64,000 nt of DNA from Minisyncoccota bacterium (GTDB lineage: Bacteria; Patescibacteriota; Minisyncoccia; Moranbacterales; UBA2206). Numbering within the stretch: position 1 is the first letter of the stretch; every line of letters starts with the position of its first letter. The notes under the pieces were generated by a model that saw only the letters and a program-made list of their open reading frames with translations, made no database searches and was not told the origin of the DNA. The stretch covers positions 6,511-70,510 of the forward strand of contig JARLIA010000011.1 of assembly GCA_031291955.1 (NCBI GenBank), given 5' to 3'. The position numbers were made by a program, and so were the translations under genes. This document shows positions 4,120 through 61,654 of the stretch, one piece after another.

Positions 4120-4794
4120 ATGAGAAAAACCGAGTTTGCCAACGAGGAATACTATCATATTTACAATCGCGGGGTAGACAAGCGGGAAGTGTTTGGCCAT
4201 GCCAATGATTATGAAAGATTTTTGCTTGGTATGGATTTGTTGAATGACGAGGATGACGGACTGATGCTTCTTTGGAGGGACTTGCACAAAAATGGGGCGG
4301 CCGGGCTTCCTAAGGTTCAACCTTTGGCTAGCCAAAGGTTGAACCTTAGGAAGCCTCTCGTTGATATCATCGCTTATTGTCTCAACCCCAATCATTATCA
4401 TTTCATCTTGAAGCAAAATAAAGACAAGGGGATAGAAAAATTTATGCAAAAATTGAGCACCAGCCATACGATGTATTTCAATAAAAAATATCAGAGAAGC
4501 GGCGCGCTATTTCAAGGCCGGTATAAATCCATCCACATCGACTCCAATGAATATCTGCTGTATCTCTCGTGCTATGTCAACGCCAATCATTTCATTCACG
4601 GGTATAATAGTGTTGAGGACTGGCCATATTGCAGTTATCCGGATTATCTCGGCAAAAGAAACGGAAAATTGTGCGGCAAAGAAATGATACTCGGGCAGTT
4701 TGACAATGATTTTTCCCAATATGAAAAATATCTGAATGACAACGCGCTCCACTTCAAAGAGAAAAAGGAAATGGAAAAATATATCTTGGAATAA
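4120..4794 (+). CDS. HUH tyrosine transposase, IS200/IS605 TnpA / REP-associated (RAYT-like, COG1943) family, with an in-frame palindrome insertion
   Basis: YHIYNRGVDKREVF, AYCLNPNHYHFIL (HuH) and ALFQGRYKS (catalytic Tyr context). Start taken at MRKTEF. The 48-bp palindrome 4306-4353 is translated in-frame as LPKVQPLASQRLNLRKP between the N-terminal motif and the HuH motif. Confidence 0.75.
   Translation: MRKTEFANEEYYHIYNRGVDKREVFGHANDYERFLLGMDLLNDEDDGLMLLWRDLHKNGAAGLPKVQPLASQRLNLRKPLVDIIAYCLNPNHYHFILKQNKDKGIEKFMQKLSTSHTMYFNKKYQRSGALFQGRYKSIHIDSNEYLLYLSCYVNANHFIHGYNSVEDWPYCSYPDYLGKRNGKLCGKEMILGQFDNDFSQYEKYLNDNALHFKEKKEMEKYILE
4306..4353. repeat. 48-bp perfect palindrome, copy 3 (inside the transposase CDS)
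   Basis: Identical to 1650-1697. Confidence 0.9.
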
Positions 4795-4887: not shown

Positions 4888-7800
4888 GTGCGTAAAGTAA
4901 AAGAATTAAAAAAAATTAAAGTGACCTCCAAAACAAAAATTATTTTATACTCCTTGGCTTTTTTCCTGATCTTTTTGGGTTTTTCCGGCAATGCCAATGC
5001 CGCTCAAATTGGCAACACCATCGATTGGGCCTGGAGCGGGCAGTTGGGATGGATCCATTTTAACGGCAGCGCAGCCACGCCGGATTATGGCGTGACGACG
5101 ACCGACGGCACTGGTCTAACTGGCTATGCCTGGAGCGAAAAAGGCGGCTATATCAAATTTTCCGGCACTTGTTCGCAAGCCGGCGGATGCCCGGGCGGAG
5201 GGAATACATATCAAGTGACAGCTTCCGGCACGTGCGCAGTTGGTCGGGAATGTCTTTCCGGCTGGGCTTGGGGAGCGGGAATCGGCTGGATCCATTTTGC
5301 CGCCAGCGGTTCAAACTATGCCAACAATTCCAATACCACCTACGGCGTCTATATCGATTCCCAAGGATTTTTCAGGGGCTACGCCTGGAATGACCAATTC
5401 GGCTGGATCCATTTCGGTGGAGCGTGTACCGGAGGAGTTGGAACTTGCCTGAATGGAGAAGCGACTTACGCGGTTCATGAAGGTCCTAAAAACGTCTACT
5501 ATTCCGTCGGCCAATCGGTGTCCAATCTCATGACCGGTTCGCCGACGATGAATCTGACGAGTGGCGTGGCGACTTTTTCCGTGGCGCAGACGGGAAACAT
5601 CGGGGTGGGCGACCGGGTGACGTATAACACTTCCAGCGTCGCTTACATTGCATCGAAAACCGACTCGACCGGGACTGATTGGCAACTGGTGACGGCCACC
5701 GGCGGAACGCCGGCGGATGTCTCTGTCGCGACGGTCAATTCCATCACCCACGAATACACTTCACTTGCGGCGGCGATTGCCGGAGCCACAGACGTCAACC
5801 ATCTCAACAACACCGATCTCACAGTCGCCAACGTGGTTTTGAATATTCCTTGTTATTATGATTCCGGATCGGACACGACAGCGGTGACGGTTTCCGGCTA
5901 CACGACTTCGGCGGCGGATTACATCAAAATTTACACGCCGTCCAACACAACTACTTATCCGGCTGAAGCCAATAATTCGCAGCGGGCGATGGGGAAGTGG
6001 GACGCGACGAAATATAATCTTCAAGCAGGGGCTTCGTCATCCAGTCTTTTGAATATTCTTGTTCCTGATGTGAAAATTGACGGGCTGCAATTATATCAAT
6101 CGGTAGGATATTATTCATCTGTAGTAGGATTGAATAGCAGCGGTGTTGTCAATCTCAGTGTGTCTAATAGTATTATAAGAGCATTCAGTGGCAATACAGG
6201 AAATTATGGCATAATTATTGAAGGCGGAAGCACTGGAAGTGTTTATAATATTTACAATAACATTGTCTATGGGGCGAGTTATGATTCTGGGTGTAATGGC
6301 CTAATGGTTGAGAATAGTTCGGTGTTTTTGTATAACAATACCTTTTACGGCAACTATACGGGAATTTATGGCTATAGCGGCACACTTATAGCTAAAAATA
6401 ACATTGTCTATAACAACACCACCGACTATTCCGGCTCATTCGATTCTTCTTCCACTAACAATTTGAGCAAAGATGCGACTGCGCCGGGGTCTAATGCGGA
6501 AATAAATCGGACCGTCCAATTCGCCAACGCCGGCGCCAATGATTTTCATCTTTCCCTTGCCGACACGGCCGCCCTGGGACACGGCGCGAATCTCTCCGTC
6601 GATACCAATTTTGCTTTCGATACTGACATTGACGGCCAAACGCGACCGACGATATGGGACATCGGAGCGGACCAATCCGCCACGGCGATATATTATTCCG
6701 TTGGGCAAAATACCAACGATCATTCTTCTGGCGGGAATGTTTCCATCTCTTCCGGCGAAGCGACTTTTGACACGCCTCAAACGGCGACGAACTTGGGCGT
6801 GGGAGATGTGCTCACCGCCGGAGGCAACGCTTATTACATTTCCAAAAAAATCGACACTTCCCATTGGGATGTTATTACGGCTCTTGGCGCGACGCCGGCG
6901 GATTTATCTTCCACATCGGTTACCTCCATTACTCACGCCTTCGCGTCTTTGGAAGGTGCGGTCGATGCCAGCACTGCCTCTGGCGCGTTCGACAGTTCGC
7001 ATCTCAACACCAAAGATCTGGTGGCGAACAATTATCAATTGAATATTCCTTGCTATTACGATACCGGTGCGGACACGACAGCGGTGACGATTTCGGGATG
7101 GACAACAGGCGCTTCCAATTACATTCGTATTTACACGCCGAAGAGTCTGACGACGGAAGCCAATTTTTCGCAAAGGGCGACGGGTAAGTGGGATAATTCG
7201 AAATATTCAATTTCAGCCAATGCTAACGTTATTTATGTGCAGATTGAAAATGTCCATGTAGACGGGTTGCAAGTCGAACTTAATCCAACATCAGATGATG
7301 GATATTTAGGAATAGGAGTAAATTCCCAATCATACATCATCGATGGGTTTGAAGCTTCAAATAATATCGTTAAACAGACAACTCAAAAAGTTGATGCGTA
7401 CGGGGTAATTTGTTATACAGGAGCATCTACTTGTAAAATATGGAATAACATTGTTTATGGCTTTAGTTTAGGATCGGCAGGAAGAGGGTCTATTTTGGTG
7501 GGCGGGTCAAGCAGTACTGTGGCCTATGTTTACAATAATACGACCTATGGAAATTATATCGGAATACAGGAATTGGCAGGCGGGGAAATATTTCTCAATA
7601 ACAATCTTTCATACAATAACGGGACCGACTATGACGGCTCTTTCGATCCGTCTTCCACCAACAACTTGAGTAAAGACGCGACTGCGCCGGCCTACGGGAC
7701 GTATTATCGTAACGCGACGGTAACTTTCGTTGACGCTACGAACGATGATTTCCATCTGGCTTCCACCGATACGGGAGCGATTGGCAACGGCGCGAATTTG

Positions 7801-10800
7801 ATCAGCGACACTTATTTGCCTTTTTCCACTGACATCGACGGCCAAACGAGACCGGCGACGGGAGCCTGGGATATCGGGGCGGATGAAAGCACTAGCAGGG
7901 TCTACTATTCCGTCGGTCAATCCGCCAGCAATCTCATGACCGGCGCGCCGACCATGACCATGGTTTCCGGCGCGGCGGTTTTGTCGGTGGCGCAGACGGG
8001 AAACATCGGGGTCGGTGATCGGGTGACTTACAACACCTCGCAAATCGCTTACATCGCTTCCAAAACAGATTCATCCGGCACCAAATGGAATTTGGTGACA
8101 GCTCTCGGCGCGACACCGGCCGATGTGACGACGGCCGTGACTGTCAATTCCATCACGCACGAATACACTTCGCTTGCCGCGGCGATTGCCGGCGCCAGCG
8201 GCGCCAACCACATCAACAATCTCGATCTTACGGCCGCCAACGTGGTTTTGAATATTCCTTGCTATTATGATTCCGGCCCGGATACGACGGCGGTGAATGT
8301 TTCCGGTTTCACAACCAGCGCGACAAACTACATCAAAATTTATACCCCCCACATCACAACTACTTATCCGGCCGAAGCCAATTTTTCGCAGAGGGCGATG
8401 GGGAAGTGGGATAATGGGAAGTATAGTTTGGAAGTTTCAGGTCCTTGGAAAAACGCGATTGATAATAATGTAATTTATACCCAGGTTGTCGGCTTGCAAA
8501 TCAGCCTGGCAAACGCCGCTGGTTTTGTCGGGGATATCCGCGATGATGCCGGCGGACTTATGGCCAGCTTTAATTTAATCACGGGAGACGACACGGGATA
8601 TGGAATTATAAGCGGAACTTATATATACAACAATATAATATATAACTTTCCAAACAACTATGGAATTTATATCACCTCGGGTTATGTTTATAATAATACT
8701 GTTTATAATGCGGGTATTGCATACGCTTGGTCAGGCGGTAACGGAACATTTTTAGAAAATAATATTGCTCAAGATACGGTAACTGGATATAGCAATAATC
8801 CTCCGGGTGCCAACAATCTTTCCGATCACGCCGACGCGCCCGGGTCCAATCCGCAAAATTCCAAAACCGTCCAATTCGCCGACGCGGCCAAGTCTGATTT
8901 CCATTTGAGCCCGAATGACTCGGTCGCGCGGGGAGCAGGAACAAATCTTTCCGCCGATTCCAATTTAGCGTTCAACACCGACATCGACGGCCAAACCAGA
9001 CCAGCCACAGGCGCTTGGGACATCGGCGCCGACCAATCCGCCACAGCCATATATTATTCCGTCGGCCAAAATACTTCCGATCACAAAACCGGCACGCCAA
9101 CAGTGACGATTGCCGGAAACGCGGTGACGTTCAGCACGGGCCAGACGGCCACCAATATGGGAGTGGGAGACAAAATTACTTATACCGTGAGCTTGACCAA
9201 CTATTCTTGCTATATTACTTCAAAGACATCCACCGACGGCACCGGCTGGATGTGCGAAACGGCCACCGGTGGCACGCCGACCGCCGCGCCCGGTGGTTCG
9301 GCTGTCGTTTCCATTACTCACGCGTTCAGTTCTCTCAATGCGGCCGTCTCCGGCGCGTCAGGCGCGAGTTATCTCAACACTTCGGATTTATACACCAACA
9401 ATTACCAATTGAATTTTCCTTGCTACTACGATTCAGGCCCGGATATGACGACGGTGACAGTTGGCGGTGGCTACACAACGGCCGAGCCGAACTATATTAG
9501 AGTTTATACGCCGTATAACACAATAACGGAAGTGAATCAGTCACAAAGAGCGATGGGGAAGTGGGATAATTCTAAATATAACGCCAGCGGATATATAAAT
9601 TTAGGGACAAACTATGTATGGATTGATGGTTTGCAAATTGTAAATTATTCATCCGGCGGCTATCCTTCGGCAATCGAGGCGAATGGGACTGCCACTCTCG
9701 GTCTTCGAGTATCCAATAGTATCATTTTTATGGACACTTCGGGAACGGCTAGTGGCACAGGAATTAAATCGGGCGCTTCGATGACGGTCTGGAATAATGT
9801 TATATATATGGCAAATACTACCAGTGCGGGGATGTATTTTAGCTACGGTAAATTTTATATTTACAACAATACGGTATATGGAGGAAGCGACGGAATTAGC
9901 GGTGCAAACCTTGGCGAAGTAATGTATGCCAAGAATAACCTTTTTTATGGTAATAATCTTGATTATCACGGCGCGTTCGACTCTTCTTCCACCAACAACT
10001 TGAGCAAAGACGCCACCGCGCCGGGCAGCAATCCGATAAACTCAGCCACCGTAAATTTTGCCAACGCGACGGCCAATGATTTTCATCTTTCCCCCACTGA
10101 CACGGCCGCATTGGGACACGGCGCCAATTTGAGCGCCGATTCCAATTTAACGTTTAATACCGACATTAATGGCAACAGCCGCGGGAGTTTTTGGTCGATC
10201 GGGGCGGATAATGGACCAGTGGCGACCATTAACGCGCCGCACGCGACAAACACCAGCGCCAGCACCGGATTGGATTCGGGTCTCGTCGGCTACTGGTCGT
10301 TTGACGGTCCGACCATTTCCGGGACAACAGTGAAAGATCTCTCCGGCCAAAACAACAACGGAACCAACTCCGGCGCCACGCCGACTATTGGGGCGCGGGG
10401 GCAGGCATTGAGTTTTGACGGGACGAGCAGTGGTGTCGCAACTGGTAATATATACCCAACCGGAAGCGGGGTTTCTTATGCTTTTTGGATGAAAACACCG
10501 CAAACGACTAATGCTATGCCTGTTATGGGTTGGGGATATGATCAATGTTGGGTCAGTAACGTAGGTTCGCATAAAATCAACTGCACTAATGATGGCGGAG
10601 GTTATGACGGAGTGACTTCCAGCATTAGCGTGGATGACAATAAATGGCACTTTATTGTTTTTGCTTCAGCGGGTGGAAGCAATGGAACCGTGACGCTTTA
10701 CGTGGATGGACAAAATCAGGGCAGCAACACTGAGACGCTAGGCATATCAAACGATTTTGCTATAAAATGGGGTTCGGTAGGATTCGACAGTCGCCACTAC

Positions 10801-11592
10801 GCCGGAGCACTTGATGAAGGCAGGGTTTATAATCGCGTTTTGTCGGCGGCTGAAGTGAATGACCTTTATCATCTCGGCGGGCAAACCGTCGGCGCGCCGC
10901 AGGCGGCGACGGGACCGACTTCCGGACTGGTGGGTCACTGGACGTTTGACGGCCCGACCATTTCCGGCACAACCATTGCCGACACCAGCGGGAGCGGCAA
11001 CAACGGCACCAACAATGGCGCCACGCCGGTGATGGGGAAATTGGGGCAGGCGATGAGTTTTGACGGGACGGATGATTATGCGTGGATAAACAATTCTAGT
11101 GCTCTTGATTTTGGCTCCGGAGATTTTTCCGTTGGGATGTGGGTGAACAAAAAGGCGAACTCTTCTGGTTGGAGTAATACTTTCGGTGTGAATAAATGGA
11201 ATACCGGAGAATCTCCTGGTACAAATGAATGGGGTCTTAACCTTACTAATGCCGGAAATGATAACACTTTCAGCTTTAATATCGAAGATGGAGCTACAAC
11301 ATATTCCGTTGCCGATACGACCATTTTTCTCTTGAATAAATGGTATCACGTGGAGGGCGTTAAATCGGGAAGTTATTTGTATATTTATGTAGATGGAGTT
11401 TTGAAAAATTCAAATAACATAGGCAGTCATTCTGTTAACAATGTTGGGGATGCTATCCAGATTGCGAGAAATGGAGGGGGGTCGATTCACTATACGAAAG
11501 CCGATTTCGACGATGTCCGCGTTTATAACCGCGCGCTGTCGGCGCAAGAGGTGGGGGATTTGTATCAGGCGGGAAGTGTGACGATGAAATAA
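4888..11592 (+). CDS. Giant secreted surface protein (2234 aa): signal peptide, four tandem ~400-aa parallel beta-helix-like modules (ABAB) and two C-terminal LamG (concanavalin-like) domains
   Basis: N-terminal KTKIILYSLAFFLIFLGFSGNANA. Repeated NNIVYG / NNTFYGN / DIGADQ beta-helix signatures. C-terminal LVGYWSFDGPTISGTTVKDLSGQNNNGTN and LVGHWTFDGPTISGTTIADTSGSGNNGTN are LamG-like. Confidence 0.85.
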   Translation: MRKVKELKKIKVTSKTKIILYSLAFFLIFLGFSGNANAAQIGNTIDWAWSGQLGWIHFNGSAATPDYGVTTTDGTGLTGYAWSEKGGYIKFSGTCSQAGGCPGGGNTYQVTASGTCAVGRECLSGWAWGAGIGWIHFAASGSNYANNSNTTYGVYIDSQGFFRGYAWNDQFGWIHFGGACTGGVGTCLNGEATYAVHEGPKNVYYSVGQSVSNLMTGSPTMNLTSGVATFSVAQTGNIGVGDRVTYNTSSVAYIASKTDSTGTDWQLVTATGGTPADVSVATVNSITHEYTSLAAAIAGATDVNHLNNTDLTVANVVLNIPCYYDSGSDTTAVTVSGYTTSAADYIKIYTPSNTTTYPAEANNSQRAMGKWDATKYNLQAGASSSSLLNILVPDVKIDGLQLYQSVGYYSSVVGLNSSGVVNLSVSNSIIRAFSGNTGNYGIIIEGGSTGSVYNIYNNIVYGASYDSGCNGLMVENSSVFLYNNTFYGNYTGIYGYSGTLIAKNNIVYNNTTDYSGSFDSSSTNNLSKDATAPGSNAEINRTVQFANAGANDFHLSLADTAALGHGANLSVDTNFAFDTDIDGQTRPTIWDIGADQSATAIYYSVGQNTNDHSSGGNVSISSGEATFDTPQTATNLGVGDVLTAGGNAYYISKKIDTSHWDVITALGATPADLSSTSVTSITHAFASLEGAVDASTASGAFDSSHLNTKDLVANNYQLNIPCYYDTGADTTAVTISGWTTGASNYIRIYTPKSLTTEANFSQRATGKWDNSKYSISANANVIYVQIENVHVDGLQVELNPTSDDGYLGIGVNSQSYIIDGFEASNNIVKQTTQKVDAYGVICYTGASTCKIWNNIVYGFSLGSAGRGSILVGGSSSTVAYVYNNTTYGNYIGIQELAGGEIFLNNNLSYNNGTDYDGSFDPSSTNNLSKDATAPAYGTYYRNATVTFVDATNDDFHLASTDTGAIGNGANLISDTYLPFSTDIDGQTRPATGAWDIGADESTSRVYYSVGQSASNLMTGAPTMTMVSGAAVLSVAQTGNIGVGDRVTYNTSQIAYIASKTDSSGTKWNLVTALGATPADVTTAVTVNSITHEYTSLAAAIAGASGANHINNLDLTAANVVLNIPCYYDSGPDTTAVNVSGFTTSATNYIKIYTPHITTTYPAEANFSQRAMGKWDNGKYSLEVSGPWKNAIDNNVIYTQVVGLQISLANAAGFVGDIRDDAGGLMASFNLITGDDTGYGIISGTYIYNNIIYNFPNNYGIYITSGYVYNNTVYNAGIAYAWSGGNGTFLENNIAQDTVTGYSNNPPGANNLSDHADAPGSNPQNSKTVQFADAAKSDFHLSPNDSVARGAGTNLSADSNLAFNTDIDGQTRPATGAWDIGADQSATAIYYSVGQNTSDHKTGTPTVTIAGNAVTFSTGQTATNMGVGDKITYTVSLTNYSCYITSKTSTDGTGWMCETATGGTPTAAPGGSAVVSITHAFSSLNAAVSGASGASYLNTSDLYTNNYQLNFPCYYDSGPDMTTVTVGGGYTTAEPNYIRVYTPYNTITEVNQSQRAMGKWDNSKYNASGYINLGTNYVWIDGLQIVNYSSGGYPSAIEANGTATLGLRVSNSIIFMDTSGTASGTGIKSGASMTVWNNVIYMANTTSAGMYFSYGKFYIYNNTVYGGSDGISGANLGEVMYAKNNLFYGNNLDYHGAFDSSSTNNLSKDATAPGSNPINSATVNFANATANDFHLSPTDTAALGHGANLSADSNLTFNTDINGNSRGSFWSIGADNGPVATINAPHATNTSASTGLDSGLVGYWSFDGPTISGTTVKDLSGQNNNGTNSGATPTIGARGQALSFDGTSSGVATGNIYPTGSGVSYAFWMKTPQTTNAMPVMGWGYDQCWVSNVGSHKINCTNDGGGYDGVTSSISVDDNKWHFIVFASAGGSNGTVTLYVDGQNQGSNTETLGISNDFAIKWGSVGFDSRHYAGALDEGRVYNRVLSAAEVNDLYHLGGQTVGAPQAATGPTSGLVGHWTFDGPTISGTTIADTSGSGNNGTNNGATPVMGKLGQAMSFDGTDDYAWINNSSALDFGSGDFSVGMWVNKKANSSGWSNTFGVNKWNTGESPGTNEWGLNLTNAGNDNTFSFNIEDGATTYSVADTTIFLLNKWYHVEGVKSGSYLYIYVDGVLKNSNNIGSHSVNNVGDAIQIARNGGGSIHYTKADFDDVRVYNRALSAQEVGDLYQAGSVTMK

Positions 11593-11642
11593 GTACCACT
11601 GATTGGACGCTGATCGGGTACGCGGAACGGACGCGGATGATC

Positions 11643-11752
11643 CCCCCTCGCCCGTACTCGGGAGAGGGCCGGGCAGAGGGCACGGAGCGCGTGGCCCTCT
11701 CTGTCACGAGTACGTGACATCTCCCCCGAGTACGGGGGAGAGAGATAAATAT
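11643..11752. repeat. GC-rich structured intergenic repeat, copy A (nested inverted repeats: cccgtactcggg / gtcacgagtacgtgac / ctcccccgagtacgggggag)
   Basis: ~85% identical to 15748-15860. Sits 50 nt after the giant-gene stop. Confidence 0.6.
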
Positions 11753-11810
11753 TGACAAGTGTCTAAATTAGGCATATTATGGGTATATAAGTATCTAAGT
11801 TAGGCATATT

Positions 11811-15747: not shown

Positions 15748-15860
15748 CTCCTCGCCCGTACTCGGGAGAGGGCTGGGGAGAGGGCGCGGAGCGCGGAGTT
15801 ACAGTGTTGCCCTCTCTGTCACGAGTACGTGACATCTCCCCCGATTACGGGGGAGAGGGA
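15748..15860. repeat. GC-rich structured intergenic repeat, copy B
   Basis: Shares cctcgcccgtactcgggagagggc ... gccctctctgtcacgagtacgtgacatctcccccga.tacgggggagag with copy A. Sits 23 nt after the stop at 15725. Confidence 0.6.
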
Positions 15861-15893
15861 TAAAGAATAATCTAAGATAAAAAAACAAAAATT

Positions 15894-19749: not shown

Positions 19750-20470
19750 CAAACCGTAGAGAAGTCGAAAGTTTATAAAGTTATAAAGTTCATAAAGTCG
19801 ACTTTTGTACAGTTTGAACCCGAGGAAAGACATCAAATAATCACGGCGGCCTTGAAGAGTAATCTTCAAGTGCGAAACTGACTCATATCGATGAAGTCCT
19901 GTTGCATGACAAACTGTCATGTGCTAGGATAATATCGAGGGAAGTCGTGTATGCTAGAATCAATTTCGTCAATTGAAAAATCTTATTTGGCTGGTTTTTT
20001 GGATGCTGATGGGAGCATTTACGTGCAAGCAAAACCAAACGAGACTTATCGTTTCGGTTTTCAAATCGCGTCGTACATAGTTTTCTATCAATCGTCTAAA
20101 GATGAAAAAGCCTTTTCCGACATGTGTTCCATTATTAAACTGGGGCACAAGCGTGTCAGAAAAGACGGTATCATAGAATATATAATCAGCAGGCAAGAGG
20201 AAATTATTCAATTTATTAATTTAATTGAGCCTTATATAAAACTGAAAAAAGCTCAATTGGAATTATTGAAAAAGATAATTGATCTTAAGAAGAAAGTCCA
20301 GGATAAAAAAGATTTTATAAAATTGATAAATTTGATTGATAAATTTCGCGAATTAAATTATTCAAAGAAGCGAAAAAAACGTACATTGACCCCGTAGAGA
20401 CTAAACGTCAGTCTCCTAATTCAATAAAATTAGGATGAAGGTATAGTCCAATGCACGTAGCAATACGTGG
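19750..20470 (+). mobile_element. Group I intron in 23S domain V/VI (inserted within GAGCUGGGUU|..ACGUCGUGAGACAG), encoding a LAGLIDADG endonuclease
   Basis: Flanking exon sequence rejoins to the conserved 23S block. The 5' exon ends in U and the intron ends in G (cgtgG|aaaacatgcgtgagacag). Confidence 0.65.
19951..20397 (+). CDS. Intron-encoded LAGLIDADG homing endonuclease
   Basis: 148 aa; LAGFLDADGSI motif. Confidence 0.8.
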   Translation: MLESISSIEKSYLAGFLDADGSIYVQAKPNETYRFGFQIASYIVFYQSSKDEKAFSDMCSIIKLGHKRVRKDGIIEYIISRQEEIIQFINLIEPYIKLKKAQLELLKKIIDLKKKVQDKKDFIKLINLIDKFRELNYSKKRKKRTLTP

Positions 20471-21088
20471 AAAACATGCGTGAGACAGGTTGGTCTCCTA
20501 TCTGCTGTAGGCGTTATTGCTTGAGAGGACACTTTCCTAGTACGAGAGGACCGGAAAGTACGAACCTCTGGTGTACCAGCTGTTCCGCCAGGAGCATCGC
20601 TGGGTAGCTACGTCCGGACGGGATAACCGCTGAAGGCATATAAGCGGGAAGCCCACCTCAAGATTAGGCAATTTTTGGTGCTTGCACCAAAACGATTTGC
20701 TAGAAGATGACTAGTTTGATAGGTTTCAGGTCTAAGCGGAGTGATCCGTTAAGCCGAGAAATACTAAAAAATCGAACATTATCTCTCTTTTTTCATTTAA
20801 CATGGAACATAGAACATGGAACATTTCCTTTGGGAGTTTGTTTCATGCTTCATGTTTCATGCTCTATGATATGGTTAGCAGTTAGCAGAAACTAAATTAT
20901 TGCGATAATTGAAAGAAAAAAACATCCTGGATGTTAATAGGATAATATGTTATAATGCCTACTATGACCGACAAGTACAAAACAAGTTTGAAGTTTACAC
21001 TGGTGTTTTTTTCTATCATATTGGTTACGGTTATGTTTTTTGTGTTCTTTTCACCAGTGATAAACGCATTTTAGAAAAAAGACATTAT

Positions 21089-21198
21089 TTTGGTGGTTCT
21101 AGCGAAGTGGTCACACCCGATCCCATTCCGAACTCGGTCGTTAAGCACTTCCGCGCCGATGGTAGCTCTTCGCGAGCAAGAGTAGGTCGCCGCCAGAA
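21089..21198 (+). rRNA. rrf: 5S rRNA
   Basis: TTTGGTGGTTCTAGCGAAGTGGTCACACCCGATCCCATTCCGAACTCGGTCGTTAAGC...GCCGATGGTAGC...GCCGCCAGA matches the 5S consensus. Confidence 0.8.
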
Positions 21199-21240: not shown

Positions 21241-22068
21241 ATGGAAAAAACGGGGAGAAAAAGAACAATTATCATTATCATTTATCTGGTGATTTTTTTT
21301 GGTTTGGGCTGGTTTGTGTACAGCCTTCTTAAACCCAAGGCTACTTGTTTTGATGGGACAAAAAACCAAAACGAAGAAGGTGTTGATTGTGGCGGCGTGT
21401 GCGCCAAAAAATGCGCTGTTCAGGCGGACGCCCAGCCTCTGATTATTCAAAAAACTGGCGCGGTGCCTTCGGGTATTGCTGGAAAATATGATTTTTACGC
21501 GCTAGTGTCCAATCCAAATTCGGTTTATGGCAGCAAGAAATTCGACTACGAAGTTGATTTTAAAGACGCTTCCGGGGCTGTTTTGGCAACTCGCGGAGGC
21601 TCTAATTTTATCCTGCCGGGAGAGGCGAAATACCTGGTCGATCCGGATATTTCTGTTTCAGGTACGCCAGCGACAACGGACATAAAAATTACCGATTCTG
21701 ATTGGGTAAAGCTCAATAGCTACTACGAAGAGCCGGATATTGAGGTCGTTAACAAGACCTATAACCAAGTTTCCGGCGGCGTCGGTTTTTCACAGGCGTA
21801 TGGACTTCTTAAGAATAATAGCCTTTTCGATTTTGATTTGATAAAGATTGAAGTTATCCTGAAAGATCAGAACGGCAATGTGCTCGGATTGAACTCTACC
21901 CAGATGAAAACGGTTAAAGCCGGTGAGCAGCGTGATTTCACCGTGGCCTGGCCAAACAGTTTTCCGGGTACGGTCAGTAATATGGAGGCCCAGGCCGAAG
22001 TGAATGTTTTTGATTCCAGCACGTTTCTGAAACAATACTATCAAACGGAAAAATTCCAGCAATATTAG
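21241..22068 (+). CDS. Hypothetical N-terminally anchored exported protein with a CFDGTKNQNEEGVDCGGVCAKKC motif
   Basis: 275 aa; single N-terminal TM helix; no recognisable catalytic motifs. Confidence 0.45.
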   Translation: MEKTGRKRTIIIIIYLVIFFGLGWFVYSLLKPKATCFDGTKNQNEEGVDCGGVCAKKCAVQADAQPLIIQKTGAVPSGIAGKYDFYALVSNPNSVYGSKKFDYEVDFKDASGAVLATRGGSNFILPGEAKYLVDPDISVSGTPATTDIKITDSDWVKLNSYYEEPDIEVVNKTYNQVSGGVGFSQAYGLLKNNSLFDFDLIKIEVILKDQNGNVLGLNSTQMKTVKAGEQRDFTVAWPNSFPGTVSNMEAQAEVNVFDSSTFLKQYYQTEKFQQY

Positions 22069-22231
22069 AGAGCTTGTCTTAAGAATAATTTCCTGCTACG
22101 GCTTTCAAAATTCGGCTAAAAAAACTTTCAGAGCTCGTCGCGTTACTCTCCGAGTAGCGCTCCTCACTCTTCAAGTTTTTCGCTCGAATTTTGAAAGCCT
22201 CGCGACGAAAATTATTCTTAAGACAAGCTCT
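22069..22231 (+). other. ~160-nt inverted-repeat structured element immediately upstream of the ftsW start
   Basis: Arms agagcttgtcttaagaataattt...gctttcaaaattcg (22069-22114) and cgaattttgaaagc...aaattattcttaagacaagctct (22184-22231). They pair over 23+14 bp with an internal bubble. The central ~70 nt contains a second imperfect hairpin. Confidence 0.5.
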
Positions 22232-23383
22232 ATGCTGGCACGAAACGTGAAACACCTAACGTTTCGCGTTATGCGCTTTACGTTTCGCGACTTTATGAAT
22301 AAGTTTTTCAAACTTGATTGGATGATGCTGGGAGCCGTGGCACTCCTTTTGATTATCGGGATGTTGGCGCTTTACAGTATTTCGTACGAGGATGCCAGCT
22401 CTATTTATGCTGGTAATCTGGCTAGACAAGCAATTTCTATCGCTATCGGGGGCGGGATGTTGTTTTTTTTGGCCTTTTTTGACTACCGTGTCCTTAATTC
22501 GTACAGTACCAAGCTATATTTTCTAGGACTGGTTCTTCTGGTGCTGGTTATCGTCTTCGGCAAAACAGTAAATGGACATACCGGCTGGCTGAATTTTGGA
22601 GGAGTGAGTCTTCAGCCGGTTGAAATCGTAAAATTGATCATGATTATTTTTTTGGCTAGTTTTCTTAGTAAGAAAAAAAATCAATTAAGCATCGCGGTCC
22701 GGATAATTGTATCGGTTGTGTTGGTTTTCATTCCGATTTATTTGATCATGAAACAACCGGACTTGGGCTCGTCCACTATTGTCATTGGCTGCTGGGGGAT
22801 GCTACTTTTTGTTTCCGGTTTGAGCAAGAAAAATCTGGTCATCCTGATTATTATCGGGGCACTGTTGGCTTCTTCTGGCTGGTTTTTTCTGAAGCCTTAT
22901 CAAAAGGACCGGATCGTTAATTTAGTGCGGCCGGAACGCGATCCCCGAGGGAGCGGTTATAACGTTCTTCAGGCGATTGTGTCGGTCGGCTCAGGCGGAA
23001 TTACTGGCAACGGCCTGGGACATGGTTCTCAGTCTCAACTGAATTTCCTGCCGGAAAAGAACACAGACTTTATTTTTTCCGTTTTGGCTGAAGAGCTCGG
23101 ATTTATCGGTTCACTTTCCATCCTGATTCTTTACGGCATTCTTTTTTGGCGACTAAAGGAAACAGCTCGGATGGCTAGGGACAACTTCGGTTATCTCATC
23201 GTCATTGGTGTAATGGCGATGCTCTTTTTGCAGGTACTGGTCAATGTTGGGATGAACATTGGGGTAATGCCGGTAACCGGCGTGCCGCTGCCGCTTTTGA
23301 GTTTTGGCGGCAGTTCGGTAATCACCATCCTGGCTTCGGTCGGAATCGCGGAGAGTATCTACATGCGGAGGATAAAAGATTAA
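22232..23383 (+). CDS. SEDS-family peptidoglycan glycosyltransferase (FtsW/RodA)
   Basis: 383 aa, 10 TM segments. GHTGWLNFGGVSLQPVEIVKL and C-terminal VMPVTGVPLPLLSFGGSS signatures. Confidence 0.85.
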   Translation: MLARNVKHLTFRVMRFTFRDFMNKFFKLDWMMLGAVALLLIIGMLALYSISYEDASSIYAGNLARQAISIAIGGGMLFFLAFFDYRVLNSYSTKLYFLGLVLLVLVIVFGKTVNGHTGWLNFGGVSLQPVEIVKLIMIIFLASFLSKKKNQLSIAVRIIVSVVLVFIPIYLIMKQPDLGSSTIVIGCWGMLLFVSGLSKKNLVILIIIGALLASSGWFFLKPYQKDRIVNLVRPERDPRGSGYNVLQAIVSVGSGGITGNGLGHGSQSQLNFLPEKNTDFIFSVLAEELGFIGSLSILILYGILFWRLKETARMARDNFGYLIVIGVMAMLFLQVLVNVGMNIGVMPVTGVPLPLLSFGGSSVITILASVGIAESIYMRRIKD

Positions 23384-28059: not shown

Positions 28060-29067
28060 ATGCTTGTACGAAAAATCGGAATCGATCTCGGGACGGCCAA
28101 CGTTTTGGTGTTTGTGCCGGGGAAAGGAATTGTGGCTAACGAGCCGTCGGTGGTTGCGATAACTCTCGCGGAGAATCGCGTTTTAGCGGTGGGAAACGAC
28201 GCCAAGGAAATGCTTGGGCGCACCCCGGATACCATCCAGGCCTCGCGACCGATGAAAGACGGCGTGATCGCGGATTATAAAATCACCGAAGCCATGCTCA
28301 AATATTTTATCAATAAAGTTTCCGGCAAGTTCCGGCTGATTCGGCCAGAGGTGATGATCTCCATTCCGGTGGGCGTCACTTCCACCGAAAGAAGAGCGGT
28401 GGTTGACGCGGCGGTGCGAGCCGGCGCCAAAGCAGCTTACGTTGTTAAAGAACCGATGTTGGCCGCCATCGGGGCCGGGATTCCGATCGCTAATCCGTCC
28501 GGCAATATGATCATCAATATTGGCGGCGGGACTTCCGAAATCGCGGTGATTTCCTTGGGTGGCATTGTTTCGGCCACCAGCGCTCGAGTGGGCGGAAATA
28601 AGATTGATCAGGCCATTTCCGACTACATCAAACGAAAATACAGTTTGGCTATCGGCGACCGGACGGCTGAGGAAGTGAAAATTACCATTGGCTCGGCCAT
28701 CGCCCAAGTAAAAGAAGAATATATGGACATTCGCGGGCGGGATTTGACAGGCGGGCTGCCGAAAACTGTCAAAATATCATCGAACGAAGTGACGGAAGCC
28801 ATTCAAGACGAACTGCGCGAGATCATCAACGCCATCAAAAAAGTTCTGCAAACCACGCCACCGGAACTGGCGGCTGATATCATGGACAAGGGTATGGTGC
28901 TTTCCGGCGGCGGCGCGCTCATCAAAAACTTGGATGCTCTCATCACTAAGACTATTGGCGTTCCGAGCTACGTGGCCGACGATCCGCTTTTTTGCGTCAT
29001 CAAGGGCATCGGGATCGCGCTTGAGAACCTGGATGTGTATAAACGTACTATCATGCTGTCAAAGTAA
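28060..29067 (+). CDS. mreB: Rod shape-determining protein MreB
   Basis: IGIDLGTANVLVFV, actin-fold phosphate motifs; full length. Confidence 0.9.
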   Translation: MLVRKIGIDLGTANVLVFVPGKGIVANEPSVVAITLAENRVLAVGNDAKEMLGRTPDTIQASRPMKDGVIADYKITEAMLKYFINKVSGKFRLIRPEVMISIPVGVTSTERRAVVDAAVRAGAKAAYVVKEPMLAAIGAGIPIANPSGNMIINIGGGTSEIAVISLGGIVSATSARVGGNKIDQAISDYIKRKYSLAIGDRTAEEVKITIGSAIAQVKEEYMDIRGRDLTGGLPKTVKISSNEVTEAIQDELREIINAIKKVLQTTPPELAADIMDKGMVLSGGGALIKNLDALITKTIGVPSYVADDPLFCVIKGIGIALENLDVYKRTIMLSK

Positions 29068-29198
29068 ATTTCTAATTTTCAATTTCTAATTTCTAAACAA
29101 TTTCCAATACTTCAATGATTAAATTTTAAAGCATTTTTAATTTAAAAATTGAGAAATTAAAAATTGTTTGAAAATTGAAAATTGAAAATTGAAAATTC
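29066..29198. repeat. MITE-like intergenic element, copy 1: left arm aaatttctaattttcaatttctaatttctaaacaatttccaat, right arm aaattgtttgaaaattgaaaattgaaaattgaaaatt with (GAAAATT)n
   Basis: The arms are imperfect reverse complements. It fills the spacer from the mreB stop to the next gene. Homologous copies at 47216-47372 and 61126-61262. Confidence 0.65.
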
Positions 29199-29207
29199 GG
29201 CAGTTTT

Positions 29208-30338
29208 GTGAAGATTGGCATCGACGCTTCTCGGGCTTTCATTTCGAAGCGTACCGGCATCGAGGAATATTCTTATCAAACCATAAAACACTTGAGAAAT
29301 AAATTGGATAAAGCTCAAGTTTTTTTGTATTTAAGAAAAAACCAAAAAGTGGATTTTGACTTGCCGGAAAATTGGAAAGTGAAAATAATCAACTGGCCGC
29401 GACTGTGGACGCAAGCGGGACTGTCGCTGGAACTGCTGTTTCATCCGGTTGACGTTCTATTTGTGCCGGGACACGTCGCGCCGTTGATTCACCCGAGAAA
29501 TACTATTGTTACAATTCATGGTTTGGAATTCGAAACGTATCCGGCCGGGTATTCTTTTTGGGAGAGGAGCTATATGCGTTTCGCGGTAAAATTGTCCTGC
29601 CGGTTTGCCAAAAAAATAATCGCAGTTTCGAAAAATACGAAGAAAGATTTGACGGATTTATACAAAATTACGGAAGGGAAAATTGAAGTGGTCCATGAAG
29701 GAGTGAATAATAATTTTCAATTTTCAATTTTTCCGGCTACGCCGGATCTCGCGAAGCGAGACAATTTTCAAACAATTTCCAATGATAAAATTTCAAATTA
29801 CAAACCATACTTATTATTTATCGGTCGGTTAGAAAAGAGGAAGAATATCGAAGGAATAATTGACGCGTATAAAATCCTGGTCGAAAAACACAAGATTCCG
29901 CACGGTCTGGTGTTGATGGGTGGTCCGGGATATGGTTTTGAAACTATAAAATTGAAAATTGAAAATTGTAAATTGAAAATTGAAACTCTTGGTTATGTCG
30001 ACGAAGCGGTGAAATGGAAATTATTGTCCCACGCGGATATATTTTTATTTCCAAGTTTCTACGAGGGTTTCGGCTTGCCGGTTTTGGAGGCGCAAGGCGT
30101 AGGTACGCCCGTCGTCACTTCTAATGTTTCGTCCCTGCTGGAAGTGGCCGGCGAGGGAGCGGCTTATTGCGTCCCTGGCGAGCCGTTTTCCATTGCCGAA
30201 GCAGCCTGGTCTATTATTCGTGACAAAGATTTTCGAGAAAGCGTAATTGAAAAAGGGCAGGAGAATGTCAAAAGGTTTTCCTGGGAAAAATGCGCGGAAG
30301 AGATTGCTAAAATTTTGACAGGGGAATGGACAAATTAA
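29208..30338 (+). CDS. GT4-family glycosyltransferase (GTG start) containing in-frame heptamer-repeat insertions
   Basis: LLFIGRLEKRKN, FPSFYEGFGLPVLEAQ and GTPVVTS motifs. Inserted segments NNNFQFSIFP...NFQTISNDKISNYKP (29700-29800) and KLKIENCKLKIET (29948-29985) derive from the MITE arm / (TTGAAAA)n repeat. Confidence 0.8.
   Translation: MKIGIDASRAFISKRTGIEEYSYQTIKHLRNKLDKAQVFLYLRKNQKVDFDLPENWKVKIINWPRLWTQAGLSLELLFHPVDVLFVPGHVAPLIHPRNTIVTIHGLEFETYPAGYSFWERSYMRFAVKLSCRFAKKIIAVSKNTKKDLTDLYKITEGKIEVVHEGVNNNFQFSIFPATPDLAKRDNFQTISNDKISNYKPYLLFIGRLEKRKNIEGIIDAYKILVEKHKIPHGLVLMGGPGYGFETIKLKIENCKLKIETLGYVDEAVKWKLLSHADIFLFPSFYEGFGLPVLEAQGVGTPVVTSNVSSLLEVAGEGAAYCVPGEPFSIAEAAWSIIRDKDFRESVIEKGQENVKRFSWEKCAEEIAKILTGEWTN
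29948..29985 (+). repeat. (TTGAAAA)5 heptanucleotide tract inside the GT4 CDS
   Basis: ttgaaaattgaaaattgtaaattgaaaattgaaac. The unit length is not a multiple of 3. Confidence 0.8.
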
Positions 30339-46899: not shown

Positions 46900-47217
46900 A
46901 TGACCGATCAAAATCAAGCACCTTCCGATCAAACTGATTTGCAAAAAACCCTGATCGACGAATTGGGGCTGGCAAGCCTCCCGCAAGAAAAACAGGAAGA
47001 ATTGCTCGTCAAAATGACGGAAGTGGTTTTGAAGCGCATCTTTGTCGAGACGATGGAGAAATTGTCTGAGACCGACCAAGAAACTTATGCTAAAATGATA
47101 GATGAGAACACTCCGCCGGAAGAGCTGGAGAAATTCCTGATGGAAAAGATTGCCAACTATGACGAGTTGGTGAAGAAAGTGGTCGATGGTTTTCGGGCGG
47201 AGATGCTAAAAGAATAA
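46900..47217 (+). CDS. Small acidic hypothetical protein
   Basis: 105 aa, Glu-rich, no motifs. Confidence 0.35.
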   Translation: MTDQNQAPSDQTDLQKTLIDELGLASLPQEKQEELLVKMTEVVLKRIFVETMEKLSETDQETYAKMIDENTPPEELEKFLMEKIANYDELVKKVVDGFRAEMLKE

Positions 47218-47372
47218 TTTCTAATTTTCAATTTCTAATTTCTAAACAATTTCCAATGCTTCAATGACTAAATTTTCAAACGTTTAATAACTTGAAAAAA
47301 TTATTGAACTGTTTGTTTCGCTATGCGAGATCTGGTGCAGCCAGAAAAATTGAAAATTGAAAATTGAAAATT
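47216..47372. repeat. MITE-like (GAAAATT)n element, copy 2
   Basis: Same arms as 29066-29198, with a different ~70-nt centre. Confidence 0.6.
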
Positions 47373-60410: not shown

Positions 60411-61124
60411 ATGGAAAAAAATATCGCGACAATCCCTGGGCACGTAGCGATAATTCCGGATGGCAACCGGCGTTGGGCGCGCGCGCGCGGACTTGAATCT
60501 TGGAAAGGACACGAAACGGGTGCGGAAAATTTTGAAAAACTGATCTCTAAGGCGCTGGACAAGGGCATTAGGTGTTTGTCTATATGGGGTTCTTCCATGG
60601 ACAATCTGCTGAAACGTCCAGTGGCGGAAAAGAAGGCGCTTTTGGACATTTACAAAAGATATTTCAAGAAGCTTTTGGAGGGAAAGGAAATCTATGAAAA
60701 CGAAGTGCAAGTCAACTTTATCGGTCATTGGGAAGAGCAGTTTCCCGAATCATTGAAATCTACTATCCGCGAAACCATTGAAAAAACCCGGCATTATAAA
60801 AAAAGAATGCTGAACTTTATGCTGGCCTACAGCGGAACGGACGATATGCTCATGGCCATCAAAAAAATCAACGATAAATATGGAGTCGGCGCTGAAATCA
60901 CGCCGCAAATCATCAAGGAAAATCTGATGACGGCGGCGCTTCCGCCAGTGGATTTCATGATCCGGACGGGGGGTGAGCCGCACAACTCTAACGGTTTTTT
61001 GATGTGGGACACGGCTGACGCCCAACTTTATTTTTTCGGTGGTAACTTTCCCGATTTTGATGATCGGGAATTTGAAATAGCACTGGAAGATTATGCTAAG
61101 AGAGGAAGAAGGTTCGGCGGATAA
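60411..61124 (+). CDS. uppS: Undecaprenyl diphosphate synthase (cis-prenyltransferase)
   Basis: GHVAIIPDGNRRWARARGL signature. Confidence 0.9.
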   Translation: MEKNIATIPGHVAIIPDGNRRWARARGLESWKGHETGAENFEKLISKALDKGIRCLSIWGSSMDNLLKRPVAEKKALLDIYKRYFKKLLEGKEIYENEVQVNFIGHWEEQFPESLKSTIRETIEKTRHYKKRMLNFMLAYSGTDDMLMAIKKINDKYGVGAEITPQIIKENLMTAALPPVDFMIRTGGEPHNSNGFLMWDTADAQLYFFGGNFPDFDDREFEIALEDYAKRGRRFGG

Positions 61125-61125
61125 A

Positions 61126-61262
61126 ATAAATTTCTAATTTTCAATTTCTAATTTCTAAACAATTTCCAATGTTTTAATGATTGAATTTTCAAGCTACATT
61201 CTTAATTTAAAAATTAAGAAATTAAAGATTGTTTGAAAATTGAAAATTAAAAATTGAAAATT
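61126..61262. repeat. MITE-like (GAAAATT)n element, copy 3
   Basis: Left arm identical over ~45 nt to copies 1 and 2. Confidence 0.6.
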
Positions 61263-61269
61263 TCAAAAC

Positions 61270-61584
61270 ATGGAACACATTTTCACTGACCAAAATTTCG
61301 AAACCGAAGTGTTGAAAAGCGATAAACCAACGCTGGTTGATTTCTGGGCGCCGTGGTGCGGTCCGTGCCAAGTTATGGGACCAATTGTTGAAGAACTGGC
61401 TAAAGATATGGGGGAAAGAGCCAAAATCGGAAAAATGAACGTGGACGAAAACCCGGAAACGGCCAAAAAACTCGGTGTCATGTCCATTCCGACGCTGATG
61501 ATTTTGAAAGGCGGAAAAATGATAAAGCAGTTCGTGGGTGTGCAGGATATTGATACACTGAAGGAAGAGTTAGAAAAAGCGTAA
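61270..61584 (+). CDS. trxA: Thioredoxin
   Basis: WAPWCGPC active site. Confidence 0.9.
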   Translation: MEHIFTDQNFETEVLKSDKPTLVDFWAPWCGPCQVMGPIVEELAKDMGERAKIGKMNVDENPETAKKLGVMSIPTLMILKGGKMIKQFVGVQDIDTLKEELEKA

Positions 61585-61654
61585 ATCATGTAAGCATATT
61601 AGCATGTTAACATATTAACAAAATGCTAAAATGTTGACATGTTAATATGTTAAT

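Follow-up and report, generated by a model that had tools for sequence, protein, structure and literature searches.

A dispersed family of AT-rich, imperfectly palindromic hairpins at gene junctions of a Minisyncoccota bacterium, probably related to the intervening sequences of rRNA

Introduction

The intervening sequences (IVSs) present in the 23S rRNA of Leptospira, Coxiella and Salmonella consist of inverted repeats that make a long stem and optionally carry a PF05635/S23p ORF (PMC4990558), and the hairpin family described in this work shares both characters. In Coxiella, the IVS is described as a selfish hairpin that RNase III excises; its S23p ORF is in decay, and it contains tandem heptamers (PMC4990558), which are also found in our family. 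In addition, rRNA insertions of Patescibacteria (CPR) carry 23S_rRNA_IVP ORFs (PMC11270868). Neither PMC11270868 nor PMC4990558 describes the present hairpin family outside rRNA.

The Rickettsia palindromic elements (RPEs; PMC10969869, PMC1779305) are similar to our family as well. They are palindromes of ~100-150 bp with no transposase known and, like our family, they are located in intergenic regions, in RNA genes and in frame within housekeeping proteins of reduced genomes. However, sequence and host phylum are unrelated, and the association with PF05635 and rRNA is a feature of our family and not of the RPEs. Furthermore, RPEs add peptides encoded by the whole element, whereas our family keeps one arm that replaces a native loop with a net change of 0-4 aa. 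The Correia elements of Neisseria (CREE/NEMIS; PMC2649163), hairpins of ~100-150 bp that lie near genes and are co-transcribed with them, provide a working model for the family. These elements can create promoters and are substrates of RNase III (PMC2649163), but their terminal inverted repeats are defined and measure 26 bp, and they have a TA duplication and an IHF site; our family showed no such features. The REP/BIME sequences, like our family, are genome-specific palindromes at conserved intergenic positions of operons and lack target duplications. In contrast, REPs have 20-40 nt, are GC-rich and flank a RAYT (Y1 transposase) gene, while our elements have ~130 nt, are AT-rich and their ORF is of the PF05635 type. 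The TIGR-Tas arrays were also considered and were rejected, their architecture (tandem guide arrays) being different.

CPR genomes are very small and densely packed, and therefore a repeat family residing in essential operons, rRNA and housekeeping enzymes was unexpected. Here we analyze a stretch of 64,000 nt from a Minisyncoccota bacterium (contig JARLIA010000011.1, positions 6,511 to 70,510 of the forward strand), hereafter the window, in which three intergenic spacers contain a common sequence. Our favored explanation, to which we assign a probability of about 0.65, is that these spacers hold ORF-less copies of an AT-rich, dispersed family of imperfect palindromes, of the IVS type and widespread in Patescibacteria (CPR). 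We favor the view that it is a selfish hairpin that persists only where it is harmless and is transcribed within operons. A description of the family was not found in the searchable literature (queried with sequence strings, peptides, and CPR combined with MITE, palindrome or repeat) or in Rfam, and no such family is mentioned in the reviews published in 2024 on prokaryotic MITEs and on CPR rRNA insertions. IVSs, RPEs and Correia-like palindromic repeats are known kinds of elements, and the present family is a variant of these rather than a new category; what sets it apart is its breadth across the CPR, its link with PF05635 and its behavior inside proteins.

Results and discussion

The three copies of the window

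The full copies and their parts are the following:

29067..29197, + strand: copy 1, ORF-less short form, between mreB (28060-29067) and a GT4 gene (29208-30338); nhmmer E=7e-20
29067-29108, then loop, 29163-29169 and 29170-29197, + strand: left arm, core ATTGTTT and four GAAAATT units of copy 1
47216..47372, + strand: copy 2, between a DUF5663 gene (46900-47217) and a 161-aa ORF (ATG 47381); nhmmer E=1e-18
47216-47257 and 47345-47372, + strand: left arm (identical to that of copy 1) and right-arm units of copy 2
47319..47344, + strand: GC-rich 26-nt module cgctatgcgagatctggtgcagccag nested in copy 2, after the ATTGTTT core and before the heptamers
61129..61262, + strand: copy 3, between uppS (60411-61124) and trxA (61270-61584); nhmmer E=4e-20
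61129-61170, 61228-61262 and, within the latter, 61235-61262, + strand: left arm, right arm and (GAAAATT)n array of copy 3

The 42-nt left arm AATTTCTAATTTTCAATTTCTAATTTCTAAACAATTTCCAAT is present with 0 mismatches at 29067, 47216 and 61129, always on the + strand, when 0 occurrences are expected from shuffled sequences. The right end of each copy is made of 3-4 GAAAATT units, and the two arms of copy 1 are imperfect reverse complements of each other (64 nt at 77%). A preliminary description made from the letters alone had reported three copies at these places, with a common left arm, right arms of (GAAAATT)n and an imperfect inverted-repeat relation between both, and our results agree with it on all these points. 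A profile built for nhmmer from 64 copies in other genomes detected in the window exactly three full copies, plus fragments internal to the GT4 gene that will be discussed below. It had also been stated that the centers differ between copies. This is valid for copy 2, whose main difference from the other two is the nested GC-rich insert at 47319-47344, but not for copies 1 and 3, which in an alignment are ~90% alike over their whole length, loops included. The GC-rich module forms two small hairpins in the predicted fold and is the 87% reverse complement of 29712-29764, inside the GT4 ORF.

Unrelated AT-rich, low-complexity spacers originated by local replication slippage could account for the variable number of heptamer units in a genome whose spacers are AT-rich. 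Nevertheless, the left arm has a non-repetitive core and is identical at the three loci (with 0 expected by chance), the exact 42-mer is also present in 10 other loci that belong to 10 different MAGs, and the loops of copies 1 and 3 are ~90% alike. We consider that these observations refute slippage, whose probability is practically nil, and that the sequences are copies of a dispersed element, as had been proposed.

The position of the copies with respect to the neighboring genes is tight. Copy 1 begins on the final A of the mreB stop codon, a TAA, and its last base lies 10 nt 5' of GTG 29208, the start codon of the GT4 gene, which is aligned with the Met of the orthologues. The first 2 nt of copy 2 belong to the upstream TAA, and 8 nt separate its end from ATG 47381. 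Copy 3 begins 4 nt past the uppS TAA and ends 7 nt before ATG 61270. Thus, the filling of the spacers from stop to start that was first described was found again, with copies that enter the stop codon by 1-2 nt or begin 4 nt after it and that end 7-10 nt before the start; as will be seen, it recurs in 48 copies from other genomes. Pfam assigned the flanking genes to MreB and GT4, to DUF5663 and an unknown 161-aa protein, and to UppS and thioredoxin, in agreement with the gene names given before for the first and third junctions. Between the element and each start codon there are 7-10 nt of host sequence, devoid of an SD motif. It should be noted that an SD-like motif is present in 4/36 genes of the window, so that its absence at the copies is not distinctive.

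Every window copy is predicted to fold as RNA into a single long hairpin, with z = -5.2, -4.7 and -2.7 for the + strand of copies 1, 2 and 3, respectively. The - strand folds somewhat better for copy 1 (z -7.7) and copy 3 (z -4.0), and copy 2 is approximately equal on both strands. No match to Rfam at the gathering threshold was obtained in the window, and a search of 28950-30050 with a permissive E-value gave only chance-level matches with E above 3. Rho-independent terminators were rejected as an explanation: no terminator-like site (GC-rich stem plus T run) is present at any of the three copies.

Distribution and architecture of the family

Other genomes were sampled by means of a single arm 21-mer, AATTTYYAAACAATTTCCAAT, taking one genome per species, and the counts that follow refer to the matches listed. 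The 21-mer was found in at least 112 stretches, mostly from Patescibacteria MAGs and often several times per genome (up to 5 among the matches listed, in loci sampled from single MAGs). The lineages comprise Moran-, Harrison-, Kuenen-, Yonath-, Zambryski-, Wolfe-, Magasanik-, Shapiro-, Falkow- and Roizmanbacteria, "Saccharibacteria" and others. Among the matches listed, ~72 have the full hairpin architecture, and whole elements in other genomes are 86-90% identical to copy 1. A few matches of the 21-mer without arms (Neobacillus, Christensenellaceae, others) look like chance. In viral contigs, the search with the 21-mer gave 0 matches.

The organization of the family is as follows: a 5' arm of 3-5 tandem AATTTYY heptamers followed by the core AAACAATTTCCAAT, a variable loop of 30-60 nt, and a 3' arm composed of ATTGTTT and 3-5 RRAAATT heptamers. 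In ~65-100% of 53 copies, Watson-Crick pairs are formed at the five A/T positions of each heptamer, pairing being near-universal by the core and reaching about two thirds in the outermost unit. In the same 53 copies the YY/RR positions mostly face each other as C.A and U.G, which leaves 2/7 positions mispaired and the stem weak. The commonest YY/RR combination is CT/GA (21 copies), the inverse TC/AG appears in 9, and 7 copies are fully complementary. Since there is one C.A and one U.G per heptamer on either strand, wobble pairs are uninformative on the strand. The variant units co-vary between the arms, AATTTAC being accompanied by GTAAATT and AATTTCC by GGAAATT. This co-variation, together with the systematic mismatch, indicates that the arms are kept alike and yet not perfectly complementary. 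As can be read from their sequence, (AATTTCT)n contains TAA in all three frames and (GAAAATT)n contains TGA and TTG in all three.

Position and turnover at gene junctions

Among the matches listed, 48/74 full copies lie between co-directional genes. In this group the first heptamer is most often at -2 to 0 nt from the stop codon (16/48), which typically overlaps the first bases, and the last heptamer is at a median of 8 nt from the start codon, with the mode at 7-8 (16/48). With respect to transcription, the arm with AAACAATTTCCAAT is on the 5' side in 37 copies and on the 3' side in 11. Furthermore, the spacing between arm and start is kept even where there is free spacer 5' of the element (L129, L137, L125 and L128). 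This tight 7-8-nt spacing is equally compatible with tolerance and with selection for a host function.

Orthologous junctions were compared among relatives. At the junction of mreB with the GT4 gene, 3-4 relatives also have a hairpin that extends from stop to start, with a different sequence each time: the units are CGCGTAA in L113, the closest relative, and AATTTAC in L114, while L115 has AACTACGAAA arms and a stem that takes in the mreB TAA and the A of the ATG. The uppS-trxA spacer measures 56-265 nt across ~30 relatives; some spacers are empty (56-65 nt) and others carry one of at least 5 hairpin families. What distinguishes L129 from L145 and L120 is a (GAAAATT)4 segment located 8 nt 5' of the trxA ATG. 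In L006, the family of the window is present at the same junction as in the window. Such differing occupancy at orthologous sites implies that the hairpins were gained, lost or exchanged over short evolutionary distances.

In the preliminary description the element was called MITE-like. A classical MITE would be a deletion derivative of an IS moved in trans by a transposase that recognizes the terminal inverted repeats, and the small size, the inverted-repeat arms, the several copies and the variable occupancy of orthologous sites are in line with this term. The remaining attributes of a MITE were not observed. A target-site duplication, for which TA or TAA had been suggested, was absent in all 74 copies, whose flanks are only A/T-biased, with no repeated di-, tri- or longer motif (left/right flanks in the window: gta/cgg, aat/ata and ata/tca). 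The ends of the elements are heptamer arrays of variable length and not fixed termini. Moreover, a transposase-bearing relative was not found among at least 115 matches, PF05635 being the sole enclosed ORF, and no viral contig contained the arm. A classical MITE seems to us very improbable. It should be mentioned that the lack of a target-site duplication, fixed termini, a transposase or a PF05635 gene in the window also counts against the reading that we favor, as does the weakness of the stem.

In the preliminary description the copies were said to constitute the promoter and RBS regions of the downstream genes, a role that we regard as putative. The regular distance to the start codon could be explained if the right arm were a portable promoter, with transcription starting at or just before the start codon and giving leaderless or very short-leader mRNAs. 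Copies 1 and 3 contain TTGAAA-N17-GAAAAT, and copy 3 replaces nearly the whole uppS-trxA spacer of the element-free relatives. The maintenance of the 7-8-nt spacing in many genomes, even with free spacer upstream, points in the same direction, as do the segment of L129, a right arm almost without left arm, the rare use of SD motifs in the genome, and the precedent of the Correia promoters (PMC2649163). However, a four-unit (TTGAAAA)n array yields the TTGAAA-N17-GAAAAT arrangement automatically. These matches reach 9/12 positions, are no commoner than in shuffled sequences and refer to the sigma-70 consensus, which may not be that of the CPR. In addition, copy 2 has no match, its array being broken by the GC module, and the element is also present within rRNA, within ORFs and between convergent genes. 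We regard a promoter role as rather unlikely.

Another interpretation is that the host has selected these hairpins as RNA devices at operon junctions, either for translational coupling or ribosome transfer, or as an RNase III "punctuation" that separates the cistrons and sets the stability of each. At its 5' base the stem overlaps the stop codon, while the start codon lies ~8 nt past its 3' base, and in L115, as described above, the stem even takes in the TAA and the A of the ATG. Also consistent with a device are the co-variation of the arms and the finding that hairpins of unrelated sequence are present at the same mreB-GT4 junction in every relative compared. This last observation counts against our favored reading. 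Other spacers of the window are likewise filled by unrelated hairpins, for example that at 22069-22231. On the other side, some junctions of the relatives are element-free, the stem is systematically mismatched, and the copies located in proteins and rRNA could not play such a role. We see a host-selected device as a doubtful explanation.

Long form and relation to the intervening sequences of rRNA

The favored reading, a selfish hairpin of the IVS type, is based on a long form of the element and on the copies found in RNA genes. In L011, L036, L042, L087, L111 and L169, arms of the window type surround one ORF. They are 366-416 nt apart, and the enclosed ORF has 115-121 aa and is found in either orientation. 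The two long-form ORFs that were scanned both belong to Pfam PF05635 (E = 6e-18 and 3.5e-19), that of L169 has a precomputed PF05635 match, and the other ones are homologous by tblastn. L169 was found via the protein and not through the arm pattern, and therefore represents an independent sample. The short copies would be the hairpin of the long form without the PF05635 gene. A PF05635 gene was not found in the window by tblastn, and an RNase III signature motif is likewise absent from it. In L057, L082 and L097 there are incidental PF05635 genes between inverted repeats of other short tandem units. The contexts of P0138 show the same neighbors at all ten places and are thus silent on mobility, but they provided an independent example of the long form.

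[quoted passage not shown] A short copy is present in L033 at the tip of helix 25 of the 23S rRNA, a classical IVS site. Other copies were found in the 16S rRNA (L034) and in the 3' half of the 23S rRNA (L039), and several lie within ~10 nt of tRNA or tmRNA genes. As for the stem-loop at an rRNA helix tip (helix 25 or 45 of the 23S rRNA) that characterizes IVSs, family members in L033, L034 and L039 have it, while the window copies are located between protein genes instead. The occupation of helix 25 is common to IVSs and to our family, as is a sporadic distribution that suggests horizontal spread. Unlike IVSs, the window copies have no ORF, and arm fragments are found inside a protein gene; the family also differs by arms that are heptamer arrays with regular mismatches. 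Taken together, the occupied sites are operon junctions, the flanks of tRNA and tmRNA genes, helices of rRNA and, with a single in-frame arm retained, the variable loops of proteins. These are presumably transcribed places that tolerate extra RNA.

Copies inside protein genes

Two segments derived from the element were found in frame inside the GT4 ORF that follows copy 1, and they had been missed in the preliminary description:

29712..29804, + strand: element-derived segment, aa 169-199, interdomain linker; three AATTTTC/T units, GC-rich module (29733-29760), left-arm core AATTTTCAAACAATTTCCAATG and start of the loop; nhmmer E=1e-6
29947..29985, + strand: right-arm-type (AAAATTG)n array, encoding IKLKIENCKLKIE, aa 247-259; nhmmer E=0.003

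These segments are 216 nt apart, and 20 nt of 29947-29985 are a perfect inverted repeat of 29712-29731. Peptides resembling the arms are found at both positions in most of the aligned GT4 orthologues from other CPR genomes. The codon of the array that would be an in-frame TGA is TGT in the window and TCA or TTA in orthologues, so the residue is usually C, S or L, each of these codons being one substitution away from TGA. In comparison with solved GT4 structures, the arm segments occupy the usual linker and helix with little change of length.

In other genomes the left arm is read in frame within KsgA, pyruvate kinase, LigA, UvrC, a Mur ligase and an aminoacyl-tRNA synthetase, as well as within membrane proteins. 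The arm peptides of KsgA and of pyruvate kinase align to a native variable loop, with +2 and +4 aa, respectively. Considering these two and GT4, the arm-derived peptides represent a net gain of 0-4 aa and retain a single arm. This replacement of native loops by one arm, nearly neutral in length, is unlike what a simple insertion would be expected to produce, and it counts against the favored reading.

Under the favored reading, the window copies would be co-transcribed with mreB and the GT4 gene, with the DUF5663 gene and the next gene, and with uppS and trxA. The RNA of the element would form a long and weak A-U hairpin, in which C.A and U.G mismatches split helices of 5 bp, and in this fold a single stem would have at its base the stop codon of the first gene and the start codon of the second. 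The stem may be cut by RNase III, if the analogy with IVSs and with the Correia elements of Neisseria holds, or it may just be melted by translating ribosomes. As regards the way of spreading, copying by recombination or by template copying could be proposed rather than cut-and-paste transposition, because there are no target duplications and the replacement in proteins is length-neutral. A broader proposal, which we put forward only tentatively and hold to be improbable as it stands, is that IVS-type hairpins constitute a general class of horizontally spreading CPR elements. With the help of an Avd-like PF05635 protein, they would write themselves into operon junctions, rRNA helix tips and surface loops of proteins by templated replacement, without target duplication or net length change, and would be retained through the stop-start geometry or a leaderless promoter.

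If the favored reading is correct, a repeat family would exist that is as conserved across candidate phyla as rRNA is, and the 23S rRNA IVSs, long without an explanation, and their PF05635 proteins would be tied to a much larger population of hairpins outside rRNA. The family would then be a concrete system in which to study the movement of IVSs and the role of PF05635. It would also account for odd low-complexity peptides of the CPR, such as NFQFSIFNFQTISN and IKLKIEN.KLKI. Furthermore, it would lead to testable predictions on how genes are expressed, be it by RNase III processing, coupling or leaderless promoters, in organisms where Shine-Dalgarno signals are largely missing.

A last aspect concerns the GT4 gene itself. 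At the DNA level, the window and L113 are 100% identical 3' of ~29780 and ~75% identical at 29424-29720, and fully identical stretches reappear nearer the start of the gene. This jump in identity places the main breakpoint of the GT4 mosaic at the in-gene element, where it could be either a recombination or an assembly breakpoint. If the favored reading holds, elements of this kind would mark breakpoints that MAGs owe to repeat-linked recombination or to mis-assembly, this gene being an example.

Mosaic structure and differing flanks at repeats

Compared with its closest relative, L113, the GT4 gene of the window (29208-30338) is a mosaic. On the 3' side of the in-gene repeat, identity between the two sequences is 100% for more than 500 nt; directly 5' of it the identity is about 75%, with identical stretches returning toward the start of the gene. 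This structure is the product either of recombination or of a metagenome assembly chimera at the in-gene repeat. In the long form of the heptamer family, locus L182, represented by one short contig, differs from L179-L185 in its downstream flank; the element is the same and the PF05635 protein is identical. The contig represents either a second genomic site of the long-form element or a place where the assembly broke at the repeat.

GC-rich modules nested in the arms

Small GC-rich palindromic modules were observed within heptamer-family arms in the window (47319-47344 and 29733-29760) and also in L005, L018, L076, L089 and L091. Their relative position is constant: they separate the heptamers from the AAACAA/TTGTTT core. 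GT4 orthologues contain GC-rich palindromes of a similar kind that are translated into the peptides LPAGRQV, LPAGEAG and PTGQAG, and a 35-aa insert, PARNASLFSLALFIQK…HSDAGG, is common to four of these orthologues.

Other repeats and features of the window

The following elements were located in the window:
901-954, 1649-1702 and 4305-4358: perfect palindrome of 51 nt in three copies, GCTTCCTAAGGTTCAACCTTTGGCTAGCCAAAGGTTGAACCTTAGGAAGCC
4888-11592: ORF of 2234 aa containing a tandem array of five or six repeats, each about 1.2 kb long (60-88% identity)
11640-11760 and 15750-15864: GC-rich module with several small hairpins (…GTCACGAGTACGTGAC ATCTCCCCCGAGTACGGGGGAGAG…)
19951-20397: LAGLIDADG_1 endonuclease ORF
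21089-21198: 5S rRNA, after the 23S rRNA gene
61590-61654: hairpin of the 8-mers CATATTAG/ATGTTAAC, after trxA

The palindrome constitutes a repeat family separate from the heptamer family, and the GC-rich multi-hairpin module lies 3' of each of two large genes. The endonuclease ORF is contained in an insertion of about 720 nt (19758-20478, with L077 as reference) near the 3' end of the 23S rRNA gene. The 8-mer unit family is found upstream of trxA in the relatives L122-L124 and L155, whereas in the window it follows this gene.

A near-perfect hairpin of 163 nt (22069-22231), with a perfect terminal inverted repeat of 23 nt, fills the entire spacer between the ORF at 21241-22068 and the FtsW/RodA gene (22232-23383), fitting exactly from stop to start. 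Its RNA minimum free energy is -79.7 kcal/mol, and in sequence it has no relation to the heptamer family.

Throughout the window, an SD-like motif is present upstream of only 4 of the 36 genes on the + strand, and many start codons are immediately preceded by aaaatt or aaattt, which are similar to the heptamer unit.
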